Origin: a virus
Direction: 5' to 3' (one strand)
Length of the DNA: 64,000 bases
Virus record (IMG/VR): IMGVR_UViG_3300020469_000023
Span: 1 to 64,000 of that record
Part shown: positions 5,538-60,192 of the stretch, one piece after another
Numbering within the stretch: position 1 is the first letter of the stretch
Layout: each line of letters begins with the position of its first letter
Made by a program: the position numbers and the translations under genes
The notes under the pieces: model-generated
Databases searched by the model: none
What the model saw: only the letters and a program-made list of their open reading frames with translations
Told to the model about the DNA's origin: nothing

Positions 5538-6171
5538 TTATTTGCTCCTTTATCACATCGTCTCCTTTCTTTCCTGTATGATGTATTATTTTTGGGTTTT
5601 TTACATCTATCTTATCTATGTAGTCTAGGCGTAACGTATTGTATTCATGTGGTAAAGGATTGATTGCACCAAGTTTTCTGATTGCATTACCTTCCATCAT
5701 TAAATATAAAACTTCTTGGTCACCTTGCTGTGGGTTATGAATACATTGTTTTTCCCAATCTCGAAGTACTAATGGTATACCTTGAATTAAAATAACACCA
5801 CTATTATACCATTCACCCATTTCTGGTCTTCTTTTACTCCATGGTCTATCTTCAATCATACCAAGTTTATCTGGTTCAGCATAATTAAATATACTTGAGA
5901 TATCTTCTAGTACTTGACAATCTGTGTCTAACCAACAAACTTTACTATGACCTAGTTCAGCAACTTTAATAAGACTAGAAGGTTTTTTAAACCAACCTTT
6001 TGCTTTATTTTTTGACATATCAATACAAGTATAATCACCATCAGGGTAATTCATCATACCAAAGTCAGCAATAACTAATTGCGTATCGTTGTATTTTTTA
6101 AAGTTTTCGATAAACCAAGGTAATTGCCATTCTGTTTTGTGGTCACACCCTGTTACAAAAACATTAGACAT
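5524..6171 (-). CDS. Glycosyltransferase (GT-A, GT8-like)
   Basis: WLDTDC DxD motif, YNSGV, GDQEVL, IIHHTG; start moved to MSNVF. Confidence 0.8.
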   Translation of the reverse strand: MSNVFVTGCDHKTEWQLPWFIENFKKYNDTQLVIADFGMMNYPDGDYTCIDMSKNKAKGWFKKPSSLIKVAELGHSKVCWLDTDCQVLEDISSIFNYAEPDKLGMIEDRPWSKRRPEMGEWYNSGVILIQGIPLVLRDWEKQCIHNPQQGDQEVLYLMMEGNAIRKLGAINPLPHEYNTLRLDYIDKIDVKNPKIIHHTGKKGDDVIKEQINARI

Positions 6172-6823
6172 CTGAGACTTCGTAGTTTTCGTTGTAGTTA
6201 TGTTTTGCAAGACAACCATTTACATTTTGAATAGTTGTAAAGTTATCTCTTGCTTCTACTGGCCATGGATAATATTCTTGAAGAAACTTAAATCTATCTA
6301 GATGTAAAAACGTGTCAGTTGGTCCAGCATCTATCTTTGCTTGGTCAATTAGTATTTTTGCACCTGCTGGTTTAATGCCATATGCATGTGCGCCAGGAAA
6401 ATATCTTTTACTTGTCAATGGATTTAGTCCTAATATTCCTGGTGTATTAAAGTTGCCATAACTAGGTTTACCAAAACTACAGACAAAAGTATAAGGCACA
6501 TTTGGTATAGGTGCAGTTAATACTGCATCGTGTTCAAAGATAAGTATCTCTTCATTTAACTCTACACATTTTTTCCATAAAGAATAATGTGAACAAAATG
6601 CAGATATACAATTTAAATTACGAGAGTATTGTTCTTCAAAACCTGCTTCGGGTATGCCTTCTTGTTCTAAAAACGTTAGTGGTTCGTCTCTCGGTGTGAT
6701 TGCTTCGAATCTTTTTATGTCTAAGTCATACTTATAACCAGATTCCATGCATCTCCAAGAAGTCTCTAGACTACCTTGATGGTGCATTATAGTAATAACA
6801 AATGCTTTCATATTATATCTCAT
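6164..6823 (-). CDS. Glycosyltransferase family 25-like
   Basis: FCSHYSLW, ILIFEHDA, GAHAY. Confidence 0.8.
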   Translation of the reverse strand: MRYNMKAFVITIMHHQGSLETSWRCMESGYKYDLDIKRFEAITPRDEPLTFLEQEGIPEAGFEEQYSRNLNCISAFCSHYSLWKKCVELNEEILIFEHDAVLTAPIPNVPYTFVCSFGKPSYGNFNTPGILGLNPLTSKRYFPGAHAYGIKPAGAKILIDQAKIDAGPTDTFLHLDRFKFLQEYYPWPVEARDNFTTIQNVNGCLAKHNYNENYEVSDV

Positions 6824-7548
6824 TGAGTTGTAGTACTCTTAAGTCCTTGTTGTATAGTAGTGTAGTAAGGATAAACGACTTGTAAAGATGGAAACAATTG
6901 CTTACACATCAATGCATCATTTGGCCACATACCAACTTCTTTTGTTTTAAGTAATAATTCTTCTGCAGTTTTTGGTGTCATAATATATGCAGAATTGCCT
7001 GCAAGTCCTTGAGGATAATCTTTTGATTCATCAACATAAGGTACATCTTGCACACCTTGTTGTTTTGATATCAAGTCGTGATACACTTGAGATTTACGAG
7101 TCATACCTCTAGGGTCATTTAGACCAACAACTTCACCTTTCCATTTATGACTTTTATTAATGTCTTCTTCAATAAACTGTCGAGTAAAAAGTGCATCGTG
7201 TTCTAGTATAATAATCTTATCTCCTGAGTTAATACACTCTTGCCATAATCTCATATGCGATATCATACATGCAATTCTATTCTTTATATCACCAGTCTCA
7301 TATGCACGAAGTCTGAGTCCAGTTGCTATGTCATACTTCTCACCGACTTGTGGATAACTATATTGTAAGAATTCTGCATCTATAGTCGTTATCTTTCTTA
7401 AATCTTCTTTAACAGTATCTGGTGTAGTCGCAGGAAAGATTAATGGGTCTATTTCAGACTTAGTTTCTTTGATAGAACCAATTACTTGTCTACTTGCTAA
7501 TGTAGATTCATGATTGTTTATCATTGTTATAATATAACCCTTTATCAT
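6820..7548 (-). CDS. Glycosyltransferase family 25-like
   Basis: ACMISHMRLW, ILEHDA, NSAYIMTP; start moved to MIKG (ATGA overlap). Confidence 0.8.
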   Translation of the reverse strand: MIKGYIITMINNHESTLASRQVIGSIKETKSEIDPLIFPATTPDTVKEDLRKITTIDAEFLQYSYPQVGEKYDIATGLRLRAYETGDIKNRIACMISHMRLWQECINSGDKIIILEHDALFTRQFIEEDINKSHKWKGEVVGLNDPRGMTRKSQVYHDLISKQQGVQDVPYVDESKDYPQGLAGNSAYIMTPKTAEELLLKTKEVGMWPNDALMCKQLFPSLQVVYPYYTTIQQGLKSTTTQ

Positions 7549-8072
7549 TGCTTTTGTCCTACAAATATGTGGTCTCTCCATTTACCTGACCTCTGGTCAC
7601 CTGAATGAAAAAGGTCTATATAATCATTTATAATTTTAATATCGTATTTGCTTTCTTCTGTTATACCTTCAAATGCATCGTCCATAAATCTAAAGTAATC
7701 TTTTTTATCATGTCTGGGGCCTGCACTTGGGACTATGATAACAATAATACCATTGGGTTTTAACACACGACATAGTTCTTCAAATATTTTAAATGGGTTT
7801 GCAATATGTTCTAATGTTTGTCCTGAGACCACAATGTCAAATGCTTCATCAATTGCGGGTATAGTATATTTTTCTTTCATAAAATGTGTCACACTCGGTG
7901 CATCTACAATATCTGCAATCCAGTAATGTTTAGTCCAATCTTTCCAAAGTAATTCATAACTTCTTTCAAGTTTACCACCACCCCCTAAATCTAAGATTTC
8001 ATTTTCTTTTTCTAAATATGGTGTAAGTTCTTGTATGACCTTTTCCATATTGTCTAGTGAACTTTGATGCAT
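7545..8072 (-). CDS. Class I SAM-dependent methyltransferase
   Basis: ILDLGGG, FDIVVSGQTLEH, RVLKPNG. Confidence 0.88.
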   Translation of the reverse strand: MHQSSLDNMEKVIQELTPYLEKENEILDLGGGGKLERSYELLWKDWTKHYWIADIVDAPSVTHFMKEKYTIPAIDEAFDIVVSGQTLEHIANPFKIFEELCRVLKPNGIIVIIVPSAGPRHDKKDYFRFMDDAFEGITEESKYDIKIINDYIDLFHSGDQRSGKWRDHIFVGQKQ

Positions 8073-8639
8073 TTAGTTTACTACTCCCGCAATACAATAT
8101 CTATAACCTTTTAACTGCACTGGTTTTGTTTCATGCATAACATGACCTCTAAACAAAAGTAGTCTACCATGTTTTATAGGTATTTCTACTTCTGCATCGG
8201 TAATCCATAATCCTTGTGCATTTTCTGGTGGGTCGATATAATAGGTAAATGCCCATCTTGCAGGCCAATGATTATGTGGTATAGTAATTTCTTCTTTTTC
8301 ATATCTGGTGCCCCATATTGCCACGACTCTAGAATTTTTAATAAATGTATTATAATTAGACATTTGACTTCTTCTATAATGATTAGGAGATTGATACATA
8401 TTTTCTTTTTCTGCACACTCAATTGCAAACTTAGAAATTATTTCACATAATGTTTTAATTTCAGGATATTCTAGTTCTTTACCAAGAAATGTTCCAGTGG
8501 TTAATGCTTTAACATTAGATAAAAAATGATTTTCATCTCCAGTTGAATCTATACGTGCAACTAATCTTGTATTCATATCTTCATTATCAATGTCTAAAGT
8601 ATAGATACGTTCTGTTAGTTTGGTTTCAACTGTATGCAT
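8073..8639 (-). CDS. Putative 2OG-Fe(II) oxygenase
   Basis: PHNH, FTYY, LLLF..HET, RYCIAG. Confidence 0.75.
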   Translation of the reverse strand: MHTVETKLTERIYTLDIDNEDMNTRLVARIDSTGDENHFLSNVKALTTGTFLGKELEYPEIKTLCEIISKFAIECAEKENMYQSPNHYRRSQMSNYNTFIKNSRVVAIWGTRYEKEEITIPHNHWPARWAFTYYIDPPENAQGLWITDAEVEIPIKHGRLLLFRGHVMHETKPVQLKGYRYCIAGVVN

Positions 8640-9319
8640 TTATCTCTACTACTTTTTTTAATTTTATTCCAAGTATTTGCAGTTGCAGTACCTGTAATTT
8701 GTAATGCAGGTCTTTTTTTCCATGAACCATTCCATGTTGCATGTGGTAAAGTTGACCACTCCCAAGTGACAACTTCTCCTGCTTTCCATTGTGTATGTAT
8801 ATGATTACCAAATTGAAATATCTGCCCTGGTTCCCAATCTGCAAGAAAGACTAGAAATCTTACTTTGTCTTTAGCATATTGAAATTCTTTACTTTCGATT
8901 CGTTCTTTTCTTGGTTCACCTGGTAGATTGTCTATATGAAACATTAACTGTTGATTTGGTTTTTGGTCATGAAACTTCCATGTTTGATTTTTAGTTTTGT
9001 CTAATTCAAACCACTCTGCAATTCTTCTAAAGTTAATAAATCTATTATCATCATTATATCTGTATGCATCAAACATTTCTGCATCAGGTTGACCAGCATA
9101 ATTATCTGCATCTTCAATTGCATGATAAACATCATTTACTACAGATGCTTTATTGTTTGCATAATTATATGGTTGTTCATTAAATAATTTTGTTTTCATT
9201 TGTGTTGTTCTTGCAATTGTAATCTCTTGAGTAAAGTCAATATCGAATCGACCAACTATTTTAAAGTAGTCTCCTTCTTTATCTTTCTTCCATTTGTCAA
9301 AATGATAATCTTCAAACAT
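8615..9319 (-). CDS. Putative 2OG-Fe(II) oxygenase / cupin-fold hydroxylase
   Basis: HID, DWEPGQ, WKAG, PHATWN, R..LQITG. Confidence 0.7.
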   Translation of the reverse strand: MFEDYHFDKWKKDKEGDYFKIVGRFDIDFTQEITIARTTQMKTKLFNEQPYNYANNKASVVNDVYHAIEDADNYAGQPDAEMFDAYRYNDDNRFINFRRIAEWFELDKTKNQTWKFHDQKPNQQLMFHIDNLPGEPRKERIESKEFQYAKDKVRFLVFLADWEPGQIFQFGNHIHTQWKAGEVVTWEWSTLPHATWNGSWKKRPALQITGTATANTWNKIKKSSRDKCIQLKPN

Positions 9320-9918
9320 TACACTCTTATAATAAACTGAGTTTTACCTCGTCTTTCTTTAAATAACATGTTTGTTTTTATGAAAGTATCAACTGCATCG
9401 GTGACACCTCTTTTACCATACTTTGCTTTTGGCCAGTAATAATCATCACCCATAATCATACCACCAGGTTTGACAACTTTCAAAGAGTTTTCTAAATCTT
9501 TTAAACAACCTTCATAACCATGGTCACCGTCTACATATATCCAATCTAATTTTTCTGGTTTAGAATCAAACCATTCATCTGAGGTCATACGATGAATTCT
9601 CACTCTTGGGTCCATTCCACACGTTGCACGTACTTCTGAATAGATTGCATCGTAATATTCTTGAAAATCTACATCTTTCTTTTTTATGTTAAGTATGTTA
9701 GAATATTTTGTTAAATACTCGTCATAACTTTTATACTCTTTAGATTTTTTATAGGGTTCTACTGACCATGGGTCAATCATATGTAGTTCAGAAATATTTA
9801 ATCGTAAGAATTGCAATGAGGTGTTTCCTACCCAAATACCTATTTCAGCGCCTTTTGAATTAGGTGGTATATCTTTCAATATACTTTTAGAATCTTTATT
9901 TACTCTAGATGCCATCAT
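9319..9918 (-). CDS. SAM-dependent methyltransferase (Methyltransf_24-like)
   Basis: AEIGIWVG, YVDGDHGYE, KPGGMIMGDDY. Confidence 0.88.
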   Translation of the reverse strand: MMASRVNKDSKSILKDIPPNSKGAEIGIWVGNTSLQFLRLNISELHMIDPWSVEPYKKSKEYKSYDEYLTKYSNILNIKKKDVDFQEYYDAIYSEVRATCGMDPRVRIHRMTSDEWFDSKPEKLDWIYVDGDHGYEGCLKDLENSLKVVKPGGMIMGDDYYWPKAKYGKRGVTDAVDTFIKTNMLFKERRGKTQFIIRV

Positions 9919-10264
9919 GAGACTTTTTCTCCGTTATTTCACTACCGCATACATTATCTATGAGTCTCTTAACTCTTGCTCTTTCATCGTTTAGTAGATA
10001 AACAAGTCTCGACAATTCTTGAAATTTAATATCAAAGTTTTGTTCTTTTTCGTAAGTTCTTTTTTCGTCTTCAATAGTCCACAATAGGCCATTGATGTGT
10101 TTTAGTAAACTAAAAAGTCTATATGTTATTTCATTTCCATATCCTACAAAAGTTGGATTTAGTTTATCTAATTCAGTTTCTACGTCTAAACCTTTTTCTT
10201 TTTTTATTGCTAGTATTGATACTTTATCGAACAATTCACCAACACTTACTTGTATTTCAGGCAT
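9905..10264 (-). CDS. DUF6165-like protein
   Basis: VSVGELFDKVSILAIK, LWTIED, NDERARVKRLI. Confidence 0.75.
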   Translation of the reverse strand: MPEIQVSVGELFDKVSILAIKKEKGLDVETELDKLNPTFVGYGNEITYRLFSLLKHINGLLWTIEDEKRTYEKEQNFDIKFQELSRLVYLLNDERARVKRLIDNVCGSEITEKKSHDGI

Positions 10265-11033
10265 TATATATTTTTACTCCTCTCGCTTTTGCACGAACAA
10301 AGTGGTGAGAAATATATCCACCAGTTGTGTATAAATGTATGTCTTCTGGTTTGTGATATAGATTTGCCATATGTAAAAATCCACTATCGATACCAATGTG
10401 TCCATCTGCTTTTCCCATAGCATAACCTATCGTTTGTATACTATCATTCATATCTGGTATGCTGGCATTACCTCCAACAGTAACTATTTCATATCCTTGC
10501 TCTTTATATCTATTCTCAATCACGTTAATTTCTGCTTCTGGTATACTTCTACCGGGGTCGGTAGTGTCCCATTGAGCAGTTACAAATTTACTAGGAACAA
10601 ATACTGCATGTTCTTTTTTTACTTGAAGCAAAGGATAATCTTTAAGTAATAATTCTGAAATGTCTAGTGGTAAAGGTATCGATGTTGGTGGGTCATTTGG
10701 GTGCATTTCTACAGTATCTTTATAGTAATAAGTTTCTGCATCATAACCACTTTCTTTTAAATATGCTAACCATTCATTTTCTGGTAAGTCTTGAACATCA
10801 TGGTTTTTATATGTGACAGTATCAGGAAACAAACTAATGATTTCTGGCCATGATTGTTGCTTTCTTGGTTTATCATTTTTATCAGCAGTAAGATGTATTG
10901 TTACTTTGTCATCGTGTAATAAACTATAAAGATGTCCTAACAACACACTATGTATTCTATCACCAAGTCCTGGTGTAGTAAATGGTCTGTCACCATTTCG
11001 CATACTTTTAGACCTCAATGCTAAGTGTTTCAT
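10257..11033 (-). CDS. Putative GT-B glycosyltransferase (GT9-like)
   Basis: GLGD N-terminal motif; HIGIDSGFLHMA. Confidence 0.65.
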   Translation of the reverse strand: MKHLALRSKSMRNGDRPFTTPGLGDRIHSVLLGHLYSLLHDDKVTIHLTADKNDKPRKQQSWPEIISLFPDTVTYKNHDVQDLPENEWLAYLKESGYDAETYYYKDTVEMHPNDPPTSIPLPLDISELLLKDYPLLQVKKEHAVFVPSKFVTAQWDTTDPGRSIPEAEINVIENRYKEQGYEIVTVGGNASIPDMNDSIQTIGYAMGKADGHIGIDSGFLHMANLYHKPEDIHLYTTGGYISHHFVRAKARGVKIYNA

Positions 11034-11461
11034 AACGAATCAATGTATGCTTGTAAATTCTCCATGTCTTGAGTTGATAAGTTTGCGGCCTGTCCCCACA
11101 TTAAAGCGGATTGAGGACCTCGTGTCTCACCATTTTTATATTGTTGTAGCATTGAAACTATTGAAGTACTACCTGCTAATTTAGGGCCGATACCACCTTC
11201 TCCTGCTTGACCATGACACATTGCACAATTAACATAAGTCTTTGCACCTTTATCTGCTGGACTTTCTCCTTGCATTGCAACTCGTTTTGCTTCCATCTGC
11301 TCTGCAAACGTTCCATATTTCTTAGTATACTCTACATAACATTCTCCGAAACAACTGTGTATACGTGAATAGTCTTTAACATCTGCTGTTTGATATGCAC
11401 CATAAAGTAATCCTGAAATTCCTGTGACTGCAATTAGTATTGGTAAAAGTACTTCTTTCAT
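11030..11461 (-). CDS. Membrane-anchored monoheme cytochrome c (c553/c4-like)
   Basis: N-terminal TM, CAMCHG heme motif, GPKLAG, distal Met in SALM, LSTQDMENLQAYI. Confidence 0.9.
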   Translation of the reverse strand: MKEVLLPILIAVTGISGLLYGAYQTADVKDYSRIHSCFGECYVEYTKKYGTFAEQMEAKRVAMQGESPADKGAKTYVNCAMCHGQAGEGGIGPKLAGSTSIVSMLQQYKNGETRGPQSALMWGQAANLSTQDMENLQAYIDSL

Positions 11462-11462
11462 T

Positions 11463-12140
11463 TTATCTCTCCCATTTTACGTAAAGTCTTGCTCCATCGG
11501 GCATAACTTCTGTAACGTTATAATTATATTTATCAGCAAATTCAAATGACTTTGCCACTGTCCATGGATAAAAGTTTGGCATTGCTAATAAACCTTGTTT
11601 TCTTAAATCTTTTCTTGATTCATTTAAATCTTTACCTAATTGTCTAAGTGAGTTAGTCTCATATAATTTAGGACTTCTGACATAGACTTCTTTTAGTTTA
11701 CCAAAATGGTCTGCATTACCTGGATTTAATCTCCAGAAAATAGTAGACTTTTCTTTCATATGTAATACTAAGTTTTCTACTTGTTTTGATATCAAGTCTT
11801 CACTACCAAAGTTAATACTACCTAAACAAAGTGCAACATCGAATCTTTCATTCGATTTAAAATCTTCAATTGCAACAACTTCATCTGCACCAATATCTGT
11901 TATGTCAATACCATAGACATTATTAAGATACTGCTTCATTGGTTGTTCACCACAACCAACATCTAATACTTTAGCATCTTTATCAATTTGAGTAGATAAT
12001 CTTTCTGGTCTTGTCCAATTTATTCTCCACTCATAGTCTTCTTTTGGTTGTTGCTGTCTAGCAATATCTAACATTTTCTGAGTCTTTGGCCAAACATGAG
12101 TAAAATATTGTGTTAACTGTTCTCTTTCACTACTATCCAT
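11463..12140 (-). CDS. SAM-dependent methyltransferase
   Basis: VLDVGCG, FDVALCLGSINFG; start probably MDSSE. Confidence 0.8.
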   Translation of the reverse strand: MDSSEREQLTQYFTHVWPKTQKMLDIARQQQPKEDYEWRINWTRPERLSTQIDKDAKVLDVGCGEQPMKQYLNNVYGIDITDIGADEVVAIEDFKSNERFDVALCLGSINFGSEDLISKQVENLVLHMKEKSTIFWRLNPGNADHFGKLKEVYVRSPKLYETNSLRQLGKDLNESRKDLRKQGLLAMPNFYPWTVAKSFEFADKYNYNVTEVMPDGARLYVKWER

Positions 12141-12738
12141 TCTTTCTCCTGAATGATGTAAGTCCATTTGCAAATCCATGATTTACTTCACTATGATGCA
12201 TTTCATCTGCTCTTACTTTAATTATTAAATCAGATAGTTTTGCAGATTTCTTCATCTTATAATATTTGATTGCTAGTTCTGGTGCTGGTACGTTTTCTAC
12301 TTCTCCATTCTCTACCATTGCTAGATAATCAGTATAACTTCGTACTGCTTCTTCTTCGAAGTAACCAATCATTCGATGAGCAGTTTTATAATCTATCATG
12401 TATAAAAACATATAGAAAATAAAAAACATTGCTTGAGCAATTAACACTAAGTATCTTTCAAACCAATTAGGGTTTGCTATCTCAATAAAAAACATTAAAT
12501 GCATTCTTTCGTTTTCTGCTTCTGCTAACAGTTCACGAATATCTGGTCCATAACCTGTCTTCATCTTACGTAAACTCTTCATATGTAACCACATTCCACC
12601 AACCATCCCTGGCACGCCAGCAACTGTTTCCAGAACTACGGCACGATGTCCATATCGTTTAGCGAAAAAAGTGTCAGCAAAGAATCTAAAAAACTTTGTC
12701 ATTGACATTGCAAGTGTGTTTCTTATTTTTTCAACCAT
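12133..12738 (-). CDS. aox: Alternative oxidase (di-iron ubiquinol oxidase)
   Basis: LETVAGVPGMV, EAENERMHL, FEEEAVRSYT, RADEMHH: all AOX iron-ligand motifs present. Confidence 0.95.
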   Translation of the reverse strand: MVEKIRNTLAMSMTKFFRFFADTFFAKRYGHRAVVLETVAGVPGMVGGMWLHMKSLRKMKTGYGPDIRELLAEAENERMHLMFFIEIANPNWFERYLVLIAQAMFFIFYMFLYMIDYKTAHRMIGYFEEEAVRSYTDYLAMVENGEVENVPAPELAIKYYKMKKSAKLSDLIIKVRADEMHHSEVNHGFANGLTSFRRKNG

Positions 12739-13367
12739 AAGTATACCTTTGTATCGTTCTCTTCATAAAAATTATACTGTCCTTTAGTATGTGAAAATAT
12801 ATCATCAGGTCTACTTATATCTATATTATCACATAGTTCATACGGGTTGTTACATTTAGTTATATGCGATTTGTTATAATGTAAGAATCTTTGTATTTCT
12901 GCACATTGGTTTTCTATTTCTAGAAATAACATATCATCATCTACATAATGCTTATAGTTAGGATATTTAATATTCCAACCACCCGCTTCATGCCACCATT
13001 CAAAACAATCGACTGGTGAACGAGAGACTATTATAATAGGTTGAGCATATTTTGTCAAGTGTTCTAGTTGATATGCAAAGTCATGCGACTTGATTATCTT
13101 GATACCTTCACTATCTTTTTTAAATGGTTTATCCCATTCGTCTCGTTGAACACCATATTTTTGACCAGTGCCAAAGTATGTTGCAAAGTGATTTGGTTTC
13201 TTTTCATCATCTAGTTTATCATCTTTATTGAAATAGAATTCGTTCTTTTTTCGATAATCTGTTTGATTAATATCTGCAGAATAGTATATACCTTTAATAA
13301 CACCTGACCATCTGCTACCTGGGGCACCTGTTGCAAGTATGTAATCAAAGTTCTGGTGCCTTGTCAT
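12723..13367 (-). CDS. P-loop/sulfotransferase-like phage protein
   Basis: ATGAPGSRWSG, IIKSH, WWHEAGGWNIKYPNY. Confidence 0.55.
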   Translation of the reverse strand: MTRHQNFDYILATGAPGSRWSGVIKGIYYSADINQTDYRKKNEFYFNKDDKLDDEKKPNHFATYFGTGQKYGVQRDEWDKPFKKDSEGIKIIKSHDFAYQLEHLTKYAQPIIIVSRSPVDCFEWWHEAGGWNIKYPNYKHYVDDDMLFLEIENQCAEIQRFLHYNKSHITKCNNPYELCDNIDISRPDDIFSHTKGQYNFYEENDTKVYLWLKK

Positions 13368-52189: not shown

Positions 52190-52702
52190 TTATGTCGCAT
52201 ACTTTGAAAAGAATGTAATTACAGTTCTATCTGTATTGCCATGTAAGGGGTGATGTGGTACGTTTGCATTGAAACAAACTGCACGATTGTATTTAAATGG
52301 AACTTCGTCACCATCTATCCAAGTGCCACCATTTCCTTCTAGATAAATGACACCTGAAAAGTCCCATGCTTTATCGATATGTGGCATGGGTGTAGATATG
52401 TTTTGTTCTAGTAAATGTTTGTAGAAAGTAATCCAACCAACTTTTACATCAAACATGTTTTGTATTTTATTGACGACCTCAGGAAGTTCGAACATAAGAT
52501 TTTTAGTTCGAAGTCCTGGCCATTTACCAATGGATTCGCTTTTATTATATTCTGCATATTGTTTTGCAGTATAATAATTAGAACTCTTAGAAAACTCTAA
52601 GACTTCATCTGGGTCATCAAGAAAGTTTTCAAATACTTGATATTTAGATTTTGACACTAAACTGTAAGGTTGCATAGAGTTTGTCAGTATTGTAGTCATC
52701 AT
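52190..52702 (-). CDS. 2OG-Fe(II) oxygenase-like (DUF6445-like)
   Basis: NFLDDPD, WPGLRT, PHID, SGVIYL, YNRAVCF, PH; start uncertain. Confidence 0.7.
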   Translation of the reverse strand: MMTTILTNSMQPYSLVSKSKYQVFENFLDDPDEVLEFSKSSNYYTAKQYAEYNKSESIGKWPGLRTKNLMFELPEVVNKIQNMFDVKVGWITFYKHLLEQNISTPMPHIDKAWDFSGVIYLEGNGGTWIDGDEVPFKYNRAVCFNANVPHHPLHGNTDRTVITFFSKYAT

Positions 52703-53261
52703 CTACTATGTATCTAACCCCAGGTCTTATGGTGAACTTTTTACCAAACTTAATATTTAACATGATATCAGTTTGAATATCTTCAAATTCTCCATCATCT
52801 ACACCGTCTTTTGCGAATGCGAATCTAGGTGAGAAATGAACTTGTGGTGCAAAACAAACTAAGTCTGTATTACATTGAAAGTTACCTTTATACCCAAGAG
52901 TAGTTAAGACTCTAAAGTAATAAGTATCACTTTTTTTACCTTCGATATCACGATACTCTACTCTAGGTCTAAAGTAGAAACCATTATCTTGTTCAAAGAG
53001 TTTTACTGATACTCTAGGTCGGTGTTCAATTCTGCCTTTCTTTTCAATGTACTGATATGAAAAATCCCAGTTATCGAGTTTGTAACCCAATTGGTGATGT
53101 GTTTTATCAGTATCTCCAAAGTAATGTCTGTATCTCCAAGATACATTATTACCAAAACTATCTTTAGTTTGTAATTTTAAATTTAATTGTTCTCTATCCC
53201 AATTTTCTGCAGAAAATACTGATGCAGATAAGAACATTATTAATATTAAAAGGTTTTTCAT
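52644..53261 (-). CDS. Outer-membrane beta-barrel protein
   Basis: Signal peptide (VFSA), alternating aromatic/Arg amphipathic strands, EHRPR/RVEYR, terminal strand LQFSVKI; GGAG SD. Confidence 0.7.
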   Translation of the reverse strand: MKNLLILIMFLSASVFSAENWDREQLNLKLQTKDSFGNNVSWRYRHYFGDTDKTHHQLGYKLDNWDFSYQYIEKKGRIEHRPRVSVKLFEQDNGFYFRPRVEYRDIEGKKSDTYYFRVLTTLGYKGNFQCNTDLVCFAPQVHFSPRFAFAKDGVDDGEFEDIQTDIMLNIKFGKKFTIRPGVRYIVDDDYNTDKLYATLQFSVKI

Positions 53262-53360: not shown

Positions 53361-53368
53361 TATAAATA
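53361..53368 (+). promoter_or_regulatory. T4-type late promoter of the curli-like operon
   Basis: TATAAATA 7 nt before ATG 53376. Confidence 0.75.
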
Positions 53369-53375
53369 GACGTGT

Positions 53376-53672
53376 ATGAACAATATAATGAAATTATTAA
53401 TGGAAGTGGGTATCCCGATTGGTAGTGCAATCATCATGGGGTTCTTTATCTTTCTGACTTTAAAATACATTTTAGATAGTGTTGGTGGTTCTGTTACAGG
53501 TCTTACTAACATTATGAATGGTTTAGAGTCAAGAGTTCGTCAAATGAATAATGATATGATAAAGATTGACTTGTTAGTAAGTGAGTCTTTAGATTTAAGA
53601 CCAGACATCGATAGAGTTGCGAGAGCAGAAAACTTTATGGAAGATGGTAAGATAGACTCTAGGAGAGATTAA
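53376..53672 (+). CDS. Single-TM coiled-coil protein
   Basis: EVGIPI..IMGFFIF TM; MNNDMIKID. Confidence 0.75.
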   Translation: MNNIMKLLMEVGIPIGSAIIMGFFIFLTLKYILDSVGGSVTGLTNIMNGLESRVRQMNNDMIKIDLLVSESLDLRPDIDRVARAENFMEDGKIDSRRD

Positions 53673-54001
53673 TGAACAGCAGTAATATTAATCAAATTGT
53701 TTTGATTATTGATGAGGTTGGTTATCCAGTTTTAATGGCAATCGGTATGGGATATTTTATCTGGTATGTTTGGAAGTATGTGACGAAAGAACTAAAACCA
53801 AAAATTGGTGCTTCACATAAGACTCTTATTAAATTATTAGACCAGATTAGAATGCTTGACAATGACTTGATACGATTACAACAGAAAGTAAATACTGTAA
53901 TCGAATATAGAAAACAAGAAGAATTAAAAAAACAAGGGCAAGAAGATGAAGACAGCACAGTATATATTAATGATATGGGTAAGTCTAACGATAACAAGTA
54001 A
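53672..54001 (+). CDS. Single-TM coiled-coil protein, paralog of the upstream gene
   Basis: EVGYPV..GMGYFIW TM; IRMLDNDLIRL. Confidence 0.75.
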   Translation: MNSSNINQIVLIIDEVGYPVLMAIGMGYFIWYVWKYVTKELKPKIGASHKTLIKLLDQIRMLDNDLIRLQQKVNTVIEYRKQEELKKQGQEDEDSTVYINDMGKSNDNK

Positions 54002-54428
54002 TTTGTTTGCTGACCAGATAGTTCATAAATTTAAATCTCCATCATTTAGTGGTATTGGACAATCGTCACACTATTTAACAATAGAGAATCAACAGAAGTC
54101 TCGTAGAGATAAGATTCAAGAAGATATCGAATCTGCAATTGCAAAAGCAGAACGTGAAGCAGATAGTACGACCCATGCTAAGTTCCTTAGAAACTTAGAG
54201 TCAAGAATCTATGCTCAAATATCAAAACAATTAGTTGACCAAATGTTTGGTGATGGAGTAAATGAAGGTTCAATAGAAGGTTTCTTTGATATGCTTGGTA
54301 ATACTGTAGCATACGAATTATGTACAGGTTGTGGTGATGATGGTATTGATGTAATTAGAATTACAATTACAGGCGATGATAATACAACAACAACATTAGA
54401 TGTACCAGTAGGTAGTGGAGCATTTTAG
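53946..54428 (+). CDS. csgF: Curli assembly component CsgF-like
   Basis: Signal peptide then DQIVHKFKSPSFSG (CsgF F.NP.FGG-like), F..NLESRIYAQIS, TTLDVP; directly upstream of CsgG. Confidence 0.85.
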   Translation: MKTAQYILMIWVSLTITSNLFADQIVHKFKSPSFSGIGQSSHYLTIENQQKSRRDKIQEDIESAIAKAEREADSTTHAKFLRNLESRIYAQISKQLVDQMFGDGVNEGSIEGFFDMLGNTVAYELCTGCGDDGIDVIRITITGDDNTTTTLDVPVGSGAF

Positions 54429-55300
54429 TGAAAATATTTTTATTGATAGGAGTATTCGTTCTATCAAGTTGTGCTAGTATTCCTTCTTTCTCACGTATAG
54501 ATTGTGATGAAAGAGAATTAGCATGTCGAGAAAGTGCAACTATAGAAAAGTTGCCATCGACAGCAGAATTAAAAAAAGTGCCAGGTCCAAGTAATGGTAA
54601 ACCTGTAGTAGTTGCAGTTTATGGATTTACAGACAAAACTGGCCAAAGAAAAAGTAGAGATACATTTTCAGATTTTTCTACTGCAGTAACACAAGGTGCA
54701 GATTTACTTGTTATTGATGCACTTAAAACTGCAAGTAATGGAGAGTGGTTTAGAGTAGTTGAGAGAACTAATATAGATGCTCTCATAAGAGAAAGGCAAA
54801 TAATAAGAAGTTCTAGAGAAGAGTTTAAAGAAGATAAACAACTAGCATCTTTAGTATTTGCAGGGATTTTAATTGATGGTGGTGTTGTTGGGTACGACAC
54901 TAACATCGAAAGTGGTGGTCGTGGAGCAAGATACTTAGGTATCGGACACAATACATCATATAGAAGAGATTCAGTAATTGTTAGTCTAAGGGCAACCTCA
55001 ACACTAACAGGTGAAATTTTAATGAATGTTCAGGCGAAAAAAACTATTTTGTCTGTCGGTGGCGGTTATGATTTATTCCGATTCTTTGATATGGATACAA
55101 AGTTATTGGAATTTGAAGATGGTAACGGATTTAACGAAAGTGTAACGTTTGCAGTTCGCTCCGCTATTGAAGTTGCCGTATTAGAACTTATTTACCAAGG
55201 ACACGATAGAGGTTTTTGGAAAATGAAAAGTGACCATCGTCACCCACACTTAAGTGATGGGACTAACGATAAACACTTAATAACTAAGGAGAAAGAATGA
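54428..55300 (+). CDS. csgG: Curli secretion pore CsgG
   Basis: Lipobox LSSC, VAVYGFTDKTGQRK, STAVTQG, WFRVVER, ERQIIR, GGVVGYDTN, GGRGARYLGIG. Confidence 0.95.
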   Translation: MKIFLLIGVFVLSSCASIPSFSRIDCDERELACRESATIEKLPSTAELKKVPGPSNGKPVVVAVYGFTDKTGQRKSRDTFSDFSTAVTQGADLLVIDALKTASNGEWFRVVERTNIDALIRERQIIRSSREEFKEDKQLASLVFAGILIDGGVVGYDTNIESGGRGARYLGIGHNTSYRRDSVIVSLRATSTLTGEILMNVQAKKTILSVGGGYDLFRFFDMDTKLLEFEDGNGFNESVTFAVRSAIEVAVLELIYQGHDRGFWKMKSDHRHPHLSDGTNDKHLITKEKE

Positions 55301-56214
55301 GAACTTTAATTCTCGCTTTATTATTAACAGCAAGTGCTTTTGCATTTGCGGATAATGAAATATATATCGAGCAAGTTGGTGAAGGTGTAGAAATTATTAT
55401 TGAACAAACAGGTAATGGAAACTTGATTGGGCAAAATACTAGCACTGGTGCTAATGCGACCGACATGAAACTGCAGATAGGTAACTCTAATGCATATTGG
55501 TTGTTTAATGGAAGTAACAACTTACTATTTGGTGATATCAACTCAGATGGTTCAAACATTGACTATAATGTTCAAGGTTCGAACAACAGAATCAATCAAT
55601 TGATTGGTACTGTAACTGGTAATACTAGTAGTAATCAAAGTGCAGATGCCATTGATATGAATGTAGATGTTCAAGGTGATTATAACCAGACAACGTTTAG
55701 GTTAGGTAATAAATCTGAAACTTACAATACACCTCATAATTTAGGTGATGGTGCATTTTTTAACAATAGTGCAGGTTTTAAAACGTATAGCAATCATACA
55801 TTTACAGGTAGTAACATCACGGGTTATGGAACTTATGGTGGTAATGCTACAAGTAACTATGGGTCAAATGCCGCATATTGGGATGCCTGGAATATTACAG
55901 AAGGTAGTGCTGATGGTGCCAACATTGACTTATTAGTTGATGGCAGTGGTGCTTCAAATACTATTGGTGCATTTATAAACTCTTCAAATGCTGTTTGGGA
56001 TTGGGACATAACTGGTTCAAATAACTGGATATTAACAACTCAAGAAGATGGAAGTGATAATAAAATATCTGTTGATTTAACAGGTGATAAAAACTATGTA
56101 TTTGTTGGTCAAAGAACAGGTACAAGTATAAGTGGTGCAGAGGCGATATTAGATGCAAGTTTTGTTACAGACGGTTCAGAAATTACGATTATTCAACAAG
56201 ATACTGGCGAGTAA
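55297..56214 (+). CDS. Curlin-like secreted beta-solenoid protein
   Basis: Signal peptide, ADNEIYIEQVG, repeated (Q/V)xGxxN; N/G/S/T-rich. Confidence 0.75.
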   Translation: MRTLILALLLTASAFAFADNEIYIEQVGEGVEIIIEQTGNGNLIGQNTSTGANATDMKLQIGNSNAYWLFNGSNNLLFGDINSDGSNIDYNVQGSNNRINQLIGTVTGNTSSNQSADAIDMNVDVQGDYNQTTFRLGNKSETYNTPHNLGDGAFFNNSAGFKTYSNHTFTGSNITGYGTYGGNATSNYGSNAAYWDAWNITEGSADGANIDLLVDGSGASNTIGAFINSSNAVWDWDITGSNNWILTTQEDGSDNKISVDLTGDKNYVFVGQRTGTSISGAEAILDASFVTDGSEITIIQQDTGE

Positions 56215-57304
56215 TCTTATTCTAATAGGGTCTGTTTATGCAGACTCTATTGGCGATATTCGTGAGCATACTGGTAGTGCGGCAATCGAAAGAGAATCTG
56301 GTGAAGAACTAGTTGTCTCTCCTGCTTTTTTACCTGATGTTGAAATGAATGATACTGCTATTACTGGTAATGGCAGAATGTTAATTGAATTCAAAGATAA
56401 AGAAGAATTAGCATTGACTGAACACACAAAGATTTATATTGATGAAGTATATTATGACCCTGACCCATCGCTGTCAAAGATGACTATGCGAATGGCACTT
56501 GGTACTGCTAGATTTACATCTGGTAGAGGTGAAATGATTGACAAAGCAAACATTGACATTTCAACACCAACTGCTCAGATAGGTATTCGGGGAACAGATT
56601 TTACAACTACAGTTGATGAACTCGGTAGAACGTTAGTTGTATTATTACCTGATGAAAATGGAGAATCATCTGGTGAAATATTTATTACAAATGCTGGTGG
56701 GACAATTACATTGAATGAAGCATATCAATCTATGATGCTTCAATCATTTGATGTAATGCCACAAAGAACAGTTATTCTTGAAGGCATTACGCCCGATTCA
56801 ATTAATAATATGTTTATTGTTAATCCACCAAAAGAGATAAAAGAAGTAGAAGCAGAAGGAGAAAGTAAAGAAGACGATGCTCAAGGTATTTTAGATGTAG
56901 ACTTCTTGGCATACGATGCCTTAGAAGAAGATGCTTTAGAAGATAAAGGAGAATTAGAATATACAGAACTAGATATTGACTTATTAGATGTTGAGTTTCT
57001 TCAAGACGTATTAGACATTACTGCTGACCTCGATAGAATAAATGAGATTGATAGAGAGGTTGCAGATATAGGTAATGTTAACATTGAAGGTACTCAAGTA
57101 GGGTTTGATGATGATAGTCAATATAGTACGTTTGTTAATAAAGAAGAAGAGACGATTGTTATGACTAGAGAAGTAGAAGGTGTAATTAGAATAACTCATG
57201 CGATTTATACAAATGCAGTTATTGAAACATACACTAACCAAAAACCAAGCGAGATAACTTTAGGAGATGGTTCAGATGCAAGAATCATAATAATACAAGA
57301 ATGA
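56153..57304 (+). CDS. FecR-domain secreted protein with acidic tail
   Basis: D..ITGNG...F.D, ISTPTAQIGIRGTDF; LDVDFL/LDIDLL repeats. Confidence 0.85.
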   Translation: MQVLLQTVQKLRLFNKILASNLILIGSVYADSIGDIREHTGSAAIERESGEELVVSPAFLPDVEMNDTAITGNGRMLIEFKDKEELALTEHTKIYIDEVYYDPDPSLSKMTMRMALGTARFTSGRGEMIDKANIDISTPTAQIGIRGTDFTTTVDELGRTLVVLLPDENGESSGEIFITNAGGTITLNEAYQSMMLQSFDVMPQRTVILEGITPDSINNMFIVNPPKEIKEVEAEGESKEDDAQGILDVDFLAYDALEEDALEDKGELEYTELDIDLLDVEFLQDVLDITADLDRINEIDREVADIGNVNIEGTQVGFDDDSQYSTFVNKEEETIVMTREVEGVIRITHAIYTNAVIETYTNQKPSEITLGDGSDARIIIIQE

Positions 57305-58131
57305 TTAAATTTTTAAAAGAAAATACATCACCACAAGGTATAAAGACTATCGTAACAATGTGGATTTTATTTGCATTTGCTATTGGTGGTTGTGAATATG
57401 TATATGCTGATAATGAAGTATATATTACTCAAAGTGGTGAAGGTACAAAGTTGTTTATCGAACAAGAAGGTAAAGATAATAAAGTAGACTTCTCAATGCA
57501 ACATCAGGGTAATGAAGTAAAAATAATCCAGCATGGGCATAATAATAAAATAGCATATGGACATTGGGGTTCACTAACTAGTGGAGATATAGATGGAACG
57601 TTTAATTCATTAGACTTTGCACAAATATGTGGACGTGGTTCAAGTTGTAAAGAATCTGATATCGGTCTGCATATCTATGGAGACAATAACTCAATACGTT
57701 GGGGACAAGGATATATTTTAAGTTCTCCGACTTCAACTTGGACATGGGACGGAAGTGAAGGTGGTGGTCATCATCTAACTTTAGATGTTCATGGAGATAA
57801 TAATAATGTTGCGGGTAGTCAAAGAAACTCATCTGCAGGCATCTATAGTGAACACCAAGCAGATATCTATCTTTACTCTAATAACAATAGTGTTTTTTGG
57901 AGACAAAATACAGATGGTGTTAAAGATGTAAATTTATACACATATAATGATGGTAATAATATTACTGGTTATCAATCTGGTTATGCAACACATACTGCAA
58001 ATATATCTTTAACTGGGTCTAGTCCAACAACATTAAATTTAACTCAAGAAGGTAACTCTGCTCAATCATATTCACTATCACAAAACTGCCAAACTATGGG
58101 TGGTTGTAGCATTTCTGTTACACAACAATAA
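57301..58131 (+). CDS. Curlin-like (CsgB/CsgA-type) protein
   Basis: ADNEVYITQSG, QEGKDN, QHGHNN, GDNN repeats; C-terminal C..GGC.ISVTQQ. Confidence 0.78.
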   Translation: MIKFLKENTSPQGIKTIVTMWILFAFAIGGCEYVYADNEVYITQSGEGTKLFIEQEGKDNKVDFSMQHQGNEVKIIQHGHNNKIAYGHWGSLTSGDIDGTFNSLDFAQICGRGSSCKESDIGLHIYGDNNSIRWGQGYILSSPTSTWTWDGSEGGGHHLTLDVHGDNNNVAGSQRNSSAGIYSEHQADIYLYSNNNSVFWRQNTDGVKDVNLYTYNDGNNITGYQSGYATHTANISLTGSSPTTLNLTQEGNSAQSYSLSQNCQTMGGCSISVTQQ

Positions 58132-58136
58132 AGACA

Positions 58137-59966
58137 ATGTATAATTGGAAAGTTGTTCTCGTAACAATAGCATTACTTGTAAGTGTTCGTATTGCTGACC
58201 CTAAATTAGTAGAGCAGTTTCGTTTAAACTATTTTGATTCACTTCAATATTTACAAGAACCCGTAGACTCTGGTATTGTTTTAGTTGATATTGATGAAAA
58301 GTCTTTAGAGCAATTTGGACAGTTTCCATTTCCACGTGATATCTATGCACAAGAATTAAGTAAGAATGGTGCATTGTCTTTGTATGTAATGAATATGAGT
58401 TTTACAGAAGCAGATAGATTTGGTGGTGATGAAGACTTAGCAAACGTGATGAATCTTCGTGAAGTTATATTATCTTCTATTCCTACAAACGTAACAAATA
58501 AAGGCGACAAACCATTTCTTGGTTTTGGCAAACTAGGTAAAGGTAACCCAAGTAATTGGTTATATAACTACAAAGGTATTTCTACACCAATAAAAGAATT
58601 AAATCCTGTTGGAGTTGGTGTTGTAAGTGCGGCACCAAGTGTTGATGGTATAGTTCGTGAAGCACCCTTAATGGTAATTGCAAACGAACATATCTATCCT
58701 TCTCTTGCATTAGAAACTTTACGTGTTTGGAATCGTCAACCTAATTATGCAATGAAAGTAAAAGAAGCAGGTGTTGAATGGGTAAGAATGGGTAAACTAG
58801 ATAAAATGTCCACTACACCTAACTCTAATATTCAGATTGCATATTGGAATAATTTTAAACGTATTTCTTTTGGTGAACCAATGCCAGATGGGCAAATGTA
58901 TATTATAGGACTATCTGCTGGTGGATTGGTAAACCCAGTACCAACACCCATGGGTGCAATGTACCCACATGATGTTCAAGCAAACTTAATTCAAACTGTC
59001 GTGAGCGGTGTACAAATACAAAGACATTTCTTTCTTGAACAGTTAGAAATACTTGTTCTGATAATAAGTACACTATTAATACTACTTATGGTATATAGAT
59101 TGCCTACGTATTTAAGTGGTATACTATCTCTTGCAATGATTGGTGGTATAGTTGCAACAGGACTATATTATTGGTATACTGCTCTGTTACTTATTGATGT
59201 AGTTTACACGTCACTGGCATTATTCCTAGTGTTTGGACATGCATCATTTAACAAGTACTACGTCACATACAAACTTAAGGAAATGATTAAAGGACAGTTT
59301 AAAACATATCTATCGCCAGATATGGTAGATAAACTTGCAGAAGACCCAAGTCTTTTAAAACTTGGTGGTGAAAGAAGAAACATGACTTTCTTTTTTATGG
59401 ATATTGTAGGGTTTACACCAATATCAGAACACTATAAAAACAATAATGACCCCGAAGGTCTAGTGGAATTAATTAATAACTTTTTAGATAGAACATCAAA
59501 TATTATACTAAATAATGGTGGTACTATTGATAAATACATGGGTGATTGTATAATGGCGTTTTGGAATGCTCCATTAGACAACAAGTATCATGCAGAACTT
59601 GCCTGTATATCTGCAATTCAAATAGAAAAAGAAGTAGGAGAAATTCAAGATGAATTTAAAAGAAAAAATCTACCTAGCATTAATGTTGGTATTGGTATTA
59701 ATACCAGTGATTGCATATGCGGTAATCTTGGTAGTCAATCCAGATTTGATTATTCAGTCATCGGAGATGGCGTCAATCTCGCCGCACGTCTGGAAGCATT
59801 AGCGGGTAGAGGCGATTATAAAAAACATATGACTATAGTTGGACAAGATACTGTTGATTCAATAGTTGTAAATGGATATAGTCAGAAAGATGTTATGTTT
59901 AATTACATTGATGAGATACAAGTAAAAGGTAAAGAAGAAAAAATAAAAATATATTCACCGAGTTAG
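58137..59966 (+). CDS. CHASE2-domain class III adenylate/guanylate cyclase
   Basis: LVDIDEKSL..GQFPFPR (CHASE2), 3 TM, FMDIVGFT, DKYMGDCIMAFWNAP, GIGIN, YSVIGDGVNLAARLE. Confidence 0.95.
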   Translation: MYNWKVVLVTIALLVSVRIADPKLVEQFRLNYFDSLQYLQEPVDSGIVLVDIDEKSLEQFGQFPFPRDIYAQELSKNGALSLYVMNMSFTEADRFGGDEDLANVMNLREVILSSIPTNVTNKGDKPFLGFGKLGKGNPSNWLYNYKGISTPIKELNPVGVGVVSAAPSVDGIVREAPLMVIANEHIYPSLALETLRVWNRQPNYAMKVKEAGVEWVRMGKLDKMSTTPNSNIQIAYWNNFKRISFGEPMPDGQMYIIGLSAGGLVNPVPTPMGAMYPHDVQANLIQTVVSGVQIQRHFFLEQLEILVLIISTLLILLMVYRLPTYLSGILSLAMIGGIVATGLYYWYTALLLIDVVYTSLALFLVFGHASFNKYYVTYKLKEMIKGQFKTYLSPDMVDKLAEDPSLLKLGGERRNMTFFFMDIVGFTPISEHYKNNNDPEGLVELINNFLDRTSNIILNNGGTIDKYMGDCIMAFWNAPLDNKYHAELACISAIQIEKEVGEIQDEFKRKNLPSINVGIGINTSDCICGNLGSQSRFDYSVIGDGVNLAARLEALAGRGDYKKHMTIVGQDTVDSIVVNGYSQKDVMFNYIDEIQVKGKEEKIKIYSPS

Positions 59967-59970
59967 CGTT

Positions 59971-60192
59971 ATGAAAAAAGTAGAGAGGTCTTTTTCAAGT
60001 GCAGTAAGAATGCCTTATCAAGATGCAATTGCATTTGCACTAAGACTTCATGACTTTCATATCGCACAATCTATTCAAGACTCAAAAAATAAAGAGTTTC
60101 ATAAAAAACAAGCACAAAGAATGCGAGATTGGTTAACTGATATGAAAGATTTTATTATTTCGAATGAGTCTTCTCATGAACATGAAGCATAA
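59971..60192 (+). CDS. Hypothetical protein
   Basis: Last ORF of the + strand operon. Confidence 0.6.
   Translation: MKKVERSFSSAVRMPYQDAIAFALRLHDFHIAQSIQDSKNKEFHKKQAQRMRDWLTDMKDFIISNESSHEHEA

Follow-up and report, generated by a model that had tools for sequence, protein, structure and literature searches.

Gene block and its published counterparts

The DNA analysed here (the window) comprises positions 1 to 64,000 of the IMG/VR virus record IMGVR_UViG_3300020469_000023, a 99-kb contig with a CheckV completeness of about 57%. At 53376-60192 it carries nine open reading frames (ORFs) on the + strand, in the order of two small paralogs with one transmembrane (TM) segment each, CsgF, CsgG, a curlin-repeat protein, a FecR-domain protein, a second curlin-repeat protein, a class III cyclase with a CHASE2 domain and an ORF of 73 aa. 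Neighbouring ORFs overlap by 1-62 nucleotides (nt) or are separated by gaps of 4-5 nt, and the block is surrounded by phage replication genes on the - strand, including a DnaB-like helicase, and by other phage families. An earlier inspection of the letters alone (the sequence-only reading) had described nine tightly coupled + strand genes in a mostly - strand region; we recovered all of them at these coordinates, and the gene identifications were right. CsgF, CsgG, FecR and CHASE2 plus Guanylate_cyc exceeded the Pfam cut-offs and Curlin_rpt stayed below them. Leaders resembling signal peptides begin CsgF, both curlin-like proteins and the FecR protein. Its sequence identifies the block as a copy of the pelagiphage curli (type VIII secretion) region already published, which includes FecR and adenylate cyclase; its carrier is a marine T4-like phage.

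The possibility that the block was an assembly chimera had also been raised. It is not a chimera, because the G+C content is even over the window (0.31-0.36), the same gene order occurs in 58 IMG/VR contigs, and DNA runs from several studies match the block, with 80-100% of its sampled words present in them. A synteny survey, as had been proposed in the sequence-only reading, showed the order to be fixed in these 58 viral loci, 45 of which have the second curlin gene. The phages HTVC008M (KC465899, 7181-13807) and Melnitz (MZ577097, 50118-56876) are alike, with the same order from the two small genes to the cyclase.

This is not the first report of the block. The sequence-only reading had supposed that a complete module with substrates and a receptor cyclase goes beyond what is known; the full region had already been described in podo- and myo-pelagiphages of SAR11 as one or two 'histidine kinases', CsgF, CsgG, CsgA/B, FecR, a second CsgA/B and adenylate cyclase (PMC9599517, 2022), and the GenBank record of Melnitz names all six genes as CsgF, CsgG, curlin repeat, FecR, curlin repeat and cyclase. 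The same study found the region without CsgE, at all 65 GOV2.0 stations and in metatranscriptomes, accounting for about 0.1% of the assembled viral proteins, and proposed aggregation, superinfection defence, import or recombination as its role (PMC9599517). Two other papers discussed only CsgG and CsgF and treated the operon as incomplete (PMC7029224, 2020; PMC9004378, 2022). None of the three mentions CHASE2. What we add is the identity of the curlins, the non-kinase nature of the small proteins, the type of the FecR protein and a bacterial cassette. Compared with the published pelagiphage region, the block shares the absence of csgE and the setting in a T4-like marine phage genome; it differs in being inverted relative to the neighbouring replication genes, in a 57-residue low-confidence insertion in curlin 1 and in the 73-aa ORF that follows the cyclase. 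Few accessory modules of SAR11-type phages are as widespread as this block, and it would give an abundant ocean bacterium a surface system that is absent from its own genes.

Curlin-repeat proteins and the CsgF/CsgG pore

Curlin-repeat protein 1 (305 aa; 55297..56214, +) and curlin-repeat protein 2 (276 aa; 57301..58131, +) both start with a signal peptide, and the latter has two conserved Cys at its C-terminus. As single sequences they matched Pfam Curlin_rpt only below threshold (E 0.08 and 0.04), and the NCBIfam CsgB model matched curlin 2 below its cut-off (E 3e-5). Family profiles gave a clearer result. Against the two curlin entries in the PDB, the profile of curlin 1 matched Pontibacter CsgA (8C50) at E 1e-5 and E. 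coli CsgA (8ENQ) at E 0.011, and that of curlin 2 matched them at E 1e-13 and E 2e-6, respectively. Invariant Q, G and N residues recur periodically in the family alignments of both positions. AlphaFold2 models of curlins 1 and 2 consist of stacked pairs of beta strands with a period of about 23 residues (predicted local distance difference test scores of 72 and 82). A Foldseek search of the PDB with both models returned nothing significant, only weak beta-helix rows. In an exhaustive structural search with curlin 2, 8C50 ranked first (Z 18.7, 27% identity, root-mean-square deviation 8.8 Å), followed by generic beta-helices with 2-14% identity. Hidden Markov models (HMMs) built from the phage curlins alone picked the genes adjoining csgF/csgG in the majority of the roughly 75 ordinary curli loci of bacteria. 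By profile, fold and this reciprocal synteny with bacterial csgFG loci, both proteins are true curlin homologs.

Residues 142-198 of curlin 1 form an insertion of 57 residues rich in Gly, Asn, Tyr and Ser, modelled with very low confidence. Most relatives (about 245 aa) are without it, and only close kin share it (locus L091 and, partly, L088).

The CsgF homolog (160 aa; 53946..54428, +) matched Pfam CsgF above the cut-off (E 9e-9) and phrog_35372 (E 1e-36). It has a signal peptide, and its mature N-terminus is conserved, with KFK(N/S)PSFSG as the family consensus. A phmmer search of the PDB with this protein did not recover E. coli CsgF and returned only chance-level rows of Bcl-xL. CsgG, the outer-membrane lipoprotein channel (290 aa; 54428..55300, +), matched Pfam CsgG at E 8e-46 and the E. 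coli CsgG structures over its full length at E 6e-46; its lipobox Cys15 is invariant among the aligned relatives. The block resembles the E. coli curli system (csgBAC/csgDEFG) in the CsgG lipoprotein channel, the conserved N-terminal peptide of CsgF and the subunits with Q-x-G-x-x-N repeats. It differs in that the phage subunits are about twice as long as E. coli CsgA and in that CsgE and CsgC are missing from the phage contig. The sequence-only reading had listed csgE, csgC and csgD as not visible, and this held for the first two over the whole contig; CsgD was not searched for.

Receptor cyclase

The cyclase (609 aa; 58137..59966, +) matched Pfam CHASE2 (E 3e-29) and Guanylate_cyc (E 5e-17). 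Its architecture is a TM segment, a periplasmic CHASE2 domain (Pfam residues 11-315), three TM segments and a class III cyclase domain; by hydropathy, the hydrophobic segments at 6-25 and 297-370 flank CHASE2. The closest solved relatives are CyaB of P. aeruginosa (3R5G) and Cya2 of Synechocystis (2W01, and the chimera 6FHT). Aligned to these, the metal-binding D422 and D470, K466 in IDKYMGD, and N547 and R551 are all in place, which bears out the remark of the sequence-only reading that both catalytic Asp and the ATP-specifying Lys are kept. The catalytic residues were invariant in an alignment of seven cyclases, save Asn547. Lys466 aligns with Glu of 2W01 and with Lys of both CyaB and the 6FHT chimera, which is named an adenylate cyclase; at the second specificity position, Ser540 takes the place of Thr in CyaB. 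The protein is best read as a predicted adenylate cyclase. It is 38% identical to the cyclase of HTVC008M and 32% to that of Melnitz.

In the Melnitz cyclase (locus L002, MZ577097), Ser replaces the transition-state Asn547 (VSTAARIE versus VNLAARLE), and there is a C-terminal extension of about 70 residues. The activity of that enzyme may differ.

The cyclase also matched the PADLOC models of PycC (E 1e-23), with 82 bits compared to 103 bits for CyaB. The other eight proteins of the block matched no PADLOC model, and the window had no match to PycTM or another effector. The phage cyclase is thus of the same fold family as that of Pycsar, and a PycTM gene follows one bacterial copy of the cassette described below. 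The differences are that the phage protein has specificity residues predicted to be of the purine type and a CHASE2 receptor domain, and that it is a phage gene and not a host defence gene.

FecR-domain protein and its probable pairing with CHASE2 sensors

The exported FecR-domain protein (383 aa; 56153..57304, +) matched Pfam FecR (E 1.5e-8) and phrog_37870 (E 1e-58). It consists of a leader, the FecR domain (residues 69-163), an acidic LDVDFL linker and a C-terminal part ending in I.I.I.Q. The FecR domain comes directly after the leader, so that an anti-sigma domain would not fit in front of residue 69, and the 99-kb contig had neither a gene for sigma-70 region 2 (Sigma70_r2) nor a TonB-dependent receptor. 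We rejected an anti-sigma regulator of the FecIRA type on these three grounds.

A different partner is suggested by bacterial genomes. The bacterial loci with the closest CHASE2 cyclases numbered 66 in our comparison, most of them alphaproteobacterial. An ORF with a FecR domain lay within 300 nt of the CHASE2 cyclase gene in 16 of them and within 10 kb in 30, and one was found near bacterial CsgG in only 1 of about 75 loci. All ten FecR neighbours tested share the layout of a leader plus FecR, with the domain at about 65-195. In the window only curlin 2 stands between the FecR and cyclase genes, and the two are directly adjacent in 13 viral loci. Published work describes similar pairs: LysM/FecR proteins pair with CHASE2 histidine kinases in operons of Burkholderiales and P. 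aeruginosa (PMC5192318), the FecR-domain protein SMc02177 of S. meliloti is among the genes regulated by cyclic AMP (cAMP) and Clr (PMC5498481), and signal perception by the CHASE2 cyclases of that species, CyaD1/D2/CyaK, depends on NsrA, a protein of the outer membrane (PMC7529298). Judged from its domain layout, the phage protein is of the exported type found beside CHASE2 cyclases in many bacteria and not an anti-sigma factor. It would then be the partner of a CHASE2 sensor and not an iron regulator.

The likeness to the bacterial pairs lies in a leader-plus-FecR gene beside a membrane sensor with periplasmic CHASE2, and, in Alphaproteobacteria, in an output by class III adenylate cyclase. 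With the S. meliloti cyclases, the phage system would share a signal crossing the outer membrane through a dedicated protein. In contrast to the phage block, the bacterial pairs are without curli genes (the Caulobacteraceae cassette excepted) and have a known cAMP receptor, Clr, of which no counterpart was seen in the phage contig. The phage FecR protein also has an acidic linker and a curlin-like C-terminal end of its own. In the last 25 residues of the family (62 aligned), a conserved G.GD.I.I.I.Q strand resembles the last curlin repeat. The curlin HMMs aligned to 38-40 of 41 FecR C-termini at E 0.04-0.5, which is not significant. As a weak lead, this strand would fit docking onto curlin.

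A cassette in Caulobacteraceae

Outside phages, the order csgF-csgG-curlin-curlin-FecR-CHASE2 cyclase was found in two contigs from metagenome-assembled genomes (MAGs) of Caulobacteraceae with a G+C content of 54-57%, L011 (CANGEH010000001; cassette at 5971-12028) and L167 (9513-15533). Nucleotide identity between the two contigs is 87% and is confined precisely to the cassette, which is about 5.95 kb long. Within it, CsgG, FecR and the cyclase are 93-96% identical and the curlins 70-85%. The flanks are ordinary bacterial genes, unrelated between the contigs, and include glycosyltransferases, an S9 peptidase, a TonB receptor, cytochrome c, acyl-CoA dehydrogenase and DsbA. Because the identity spans exactly the cassette while the flanks are unrelated and bacterial, the six genes travel together and are maintained independently of the other phage genes. 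This contradicts the published claim that FecR and cyclase do not occur within bacterial type VIII secretion operons (PMC9599517). At least 70 ordinary bacterial csgG loci are without FecR and cyclase within 10 kb, whereas the phage system is linked to both.

Phylogenies place the module-linked copies together. In the CsgG tree, those copies (viral plus L011) form one clade with a support of 95 in the Shimodaira-Hasegawa-like approximate likelihood ratio test (SH-aLRT), apart from 54 ordinary bacterial CsgG. In the cyclase tree they likewise form one clade apart from ordinary bacterial copies (SH-aLRT 100), and L011 falls inside the viral clade (100), where its sister is a freshwater phage-like contig (100). 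Both are unrooted quick trees, which do not settle the direction of transfer but lean towards a capture of the cassette from a phage. The presence of the cassette in bacterial chromosomes suggests that pore, fibre and sensor form a self-sufficient unit, and this unit could be studied in a tractable, Caulobacter-like host.

Directly after the CHASE2 cyclase of L011, whose cyclase domain matches the PycC models, there is a gene for a 197-aa PycTM/2TM effector (12470-13063; Pfam E 9e-25, PADLOC E 1e-17). We rejected this gene as a part of the cassette, since L167 has a TetR gene at that place.

Contigs bearing the module were also binned in other public MAGs (loci L005-L010, L012, L013, L017, L051, L165, L168 and L190), labelled as Synechococcus, Rhodobacterales, Sphingobacteriales, Flavobacteriaceae, Bacteroidetes, Pirellulales, Planctomycetaceae and Luteolibacter. 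Their G+C content is 32-40%, and T4-like or PHROG families flank several of them. The placement of these phage contigs is likely mis-binning, which could mislead claims on host or origin. On the same grounds, low-G+C contigs with the full module that were binned as Rhodobacterales, Sphingobacteriales, Bacteroidetes, Legionellales, Pirellulales, Planctomycetaceae or Luteolibacter were rejected as bacterial homes or left open; contig L014 is ambiguous in this respect. Scans of genome contigs with the FecR protein and the cyclase as single proteins yielded nothing but phage contigs from the bin of a Synechococcus MAG.

Small membrane proteins and the putative late promoter

The block begins with small membrane protein 1 (98 aa; 53376..53672, +), which matched phrog_18771 (E 5e-25) and has one N-terminal TM helix, its single hydrophobic segment by hydropathy, followed by a helical tail. 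It was found in nearly all viral loci. Its paralog, small membrane protein 2 (109 aa; 53672..54001, +), matched the same family (E 8e-27), and the basic stretch after its TM segment suggests a cytoplasmic C-terminus. The two share the consensus E.GFPI..A.GMGYFI...RMLDND.IRLD. The family is found only in phages, and the neighbours of both proteins in the Atlas are all viral, in unnamed clusters. A lead to a holin family in the Atlas scored 0.83, below the trust level of the tool. The label of 'histidine kinases' given to the small upstream proteins (PMC9599517) was rejected, as neither protein matched HisKA or HATPase_c (Pfam, E 0.1) and no His is conserved among 129 aligned members. From their sequences, these proteins are not kinases. 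Their genes are absent from the Caulobacteraceae cassette.

A T4-type late-promoter-like motif, TATAAATA, lies at 53361..53368 (+), 7 nt before the first ATG. The presence of the motif alone means little because its count in the window is no higher than chance, with 9 found and about 11 expected from shuffles. Its position is another matter. We compared 60 related loci whose upstream region was long enough. In 36 of them, TATAAATA occurs in the 100 nt that precede the first TM gene, and the rest have mostly CATAAATA or the similar NATAAATA at -13 to -15, often directly after a hairpin and a T-run. This conserved position speaks for a predicted late transcript of the T4 type that would be almost leaderless. 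The late promoter proposed in the sequence-only reading thus gains from its conservation, which favours a late operon, although the motif is not enriched in the window.

The motif keeps a constant distance of 13-15 nt from the first start codon (53361-53378 in the window, and the 60 related loci), with no space for a Shine-Dalgarno sequence. This arrangement suggests that the first gene is near-leaderless. Parts of the stretch were present in five RNA libraries. Assembled contigs from four of these cover the flanks as evenly as the module, and one contig begins upstream of the promoter.

A trans-envelope reading and its rivals

We consider, with slightly better than even confidence, that the block exports a curlin fibre late in infection and combines this with a FecR/CHASE2 envelope sensor that sets cAMP; the sensor is drawn from synteny and bacterial parallels, and its coupling to the fibre and the purpose of the whole are putative. 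A T4-type late promoter would drive a single transcript late in infection, as the conserved motif position implies. The signal peptides and the lipobox would direct CsgG, CsgF, the two curlin-repeat proteins and the FecR-domain protein to Sec. By homology, CsgG and CsgF would form an outer-membrane channel letting out the curlins, which would stack into a beta-solenoid fibre. The exported FecR protein and the periplasmic CHASE2 domain may act as a two-part envelope sensor that sets cAMP synthesis in the cytoplasm; candidate signals are curlin traffic, the condition of the pore or fibre, or a cue that enters from outside through the open pore. The two small TM proteins would be phage-specific accessories. 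The predicted trans-envelope coupling of fibre and cAMP is plausible because the synteny is fixed in phage loci, the six genes move as a cassette into bacteria, and the exported FecR protein recurs beside bacterial CHASE2 cyclases.

Several observations weigh against this account. Parts of the module are dispensable or variable, since 13 of the 58 viral loci are without the second curlin and Melnitz has Ser for Asn in its cyclase. CsgE and CsgC had no match in the 99-kb contig (about 57% complete), so the targeting of substrates and the gating would not be as in E. coli. In the constriction of CsgG, read from the alignment, Arg stands for Tyr51 and Asp for Asn55 of the E. coli protein. The same incomplete contig encodes no cNMP-binding (cyclic-nucleotide-binding) domain or cAMP receptor. 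The contigs from RNA libraries are no proof of transcription, because the flanks are covered as evenly as the module, and they reveal neither the strand nor the start site. Cells infected with Melnitz did not clump in the work of Buchholz et al. (PMC9004378). That the curlins are secreted and form amyloid, that the cyclase is active and that FecR contacts CHASE2 are all predictions from sequence.

The absence of clumping also counts against the rival that surface curlin fibres clump host cells for the progeny ('sibling capture') or block rival phages, with FecR and cyclase as regulators or passengers. This idea has been proposed before (PMC7029224, PMC9599517), and it is consistent with two true curlins bearing signal peptides, with the complete pore parts and with late expression, which fits an effect at or after lysis. 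Besides the lack of clumping, it leaves unexplained why FecR and cyclase are retained in nearly every locus and moved together into bacteria, and host cells are very dilute in oligotrophic water. We regard it as unlikely. Quite unlikely, in our opinion, is a device for lysis timing, in which CsgGF or the small TM proteins serve as a gated pore or a holin/antiholin pair and the FecR/CHASE2 cyclase monitors the periplasm and decides when the cell lyses, in loose analogy to T4 lysis inhibition. It was proposed for CsgGF (PMC9004378). The module does stand behind a late promoter, the one-TM proteins with helical tails are phage-specific and missing from the bacterial cassette, the holin lead exists, and a PycTM membrane effector follows the cyclase in one cassette. 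But CsgG belongs to the outer membrane and could not depolarise the inner one, no role is left for the curlins, the holin lead is under the trust level, and the second cassette has no PycTM neighbour.

Two further rivals concern the sensor and its product. The FecR protein might sense iron citrate as in E. coli while an ungated CsgG admits nutrients or cofactors, a proposal raised earlier (PMC7029224, PMC9599517) and compatible with the absence of CsgE from the contig. A cytoplasmic anti-sigma domain would not fit in the FecR protein, neither sigma-70 region 2 nor a TonB-dependent receptor is encoded in the contig, the bacterial counterparts pair with CHASE2 sensors and not with FecA/FecI, and two conserved curlin substrates would be unexplained; we find this proposal highly improbable. 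It is also very unlikely that the product is cyclic GMP or a pyrimidine cyclic nucleotide (Pycsar-like) that serves phage-host or phage-phage conflict and not the control of curli. The PADLOC PycC match, the PycTM gene that follows one of the two Caulobacteraceae cassettes and the lack of a visible cAMP receptor in the phage speak for it. Against it, the closest solved relative is the adenylate cyclase CyaB, which scores above PycC, Lys466 occupies the site where the Glu of Cya2 (2W01) becomes Lys in the adenylate-cyclase chimera, and the window holds no effector with a PADLOC match.

A bolder form of the preferred account, export of a curlin fibre with a FecR/CHASE2 sensor setting cAMP, would join all parts in one physical trans-envelope machine. 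Here the I.I.I.Q strand of FecR would dock on the curlin or fibre at the CsgGF pore and report its state, or an outside cue, to the CHASE2 cyclase; cAMP, acting through the small membrane proteins or a non-canonical receptor, would set a late decision such as the timing of lysis. We hold this to be improbable as a whole. If true, it would be a new kind of secretion-coupled second-messenger sensor in abundant marine phages and a few bacteria.

Flanking and minor genes

The last ORF of the block, a small soluble protein (73 aa; 59971..60192, +), accompanies the cyclase gene. It had no family match in Pfam, PHROG or NCBIfam. Soluble homologs of 70-75 aa lie directly before or after the cyclase gene in 15 related loci and share the conserved motif RMPYQDAIAFALR...KDFH.

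On the other side, a gene at 52644-53261 (-) is transcribed divergently from the module, from a promoter at 53320-53292 (-) with a perfect 12/12 sigma-70 consensus. It encodes a 205-aa protein with a signal peptide and weak matches to outer-membrane beta-barrels (DUF2490 E 3.5e-4, OMP_b-brl E 0.05). The gene was considered as a part of the module and rejected, having no homolog in any related locus. Because about 160 related loci contain no homolog and PHROG gave no match, it is specific to its own phage lineage.

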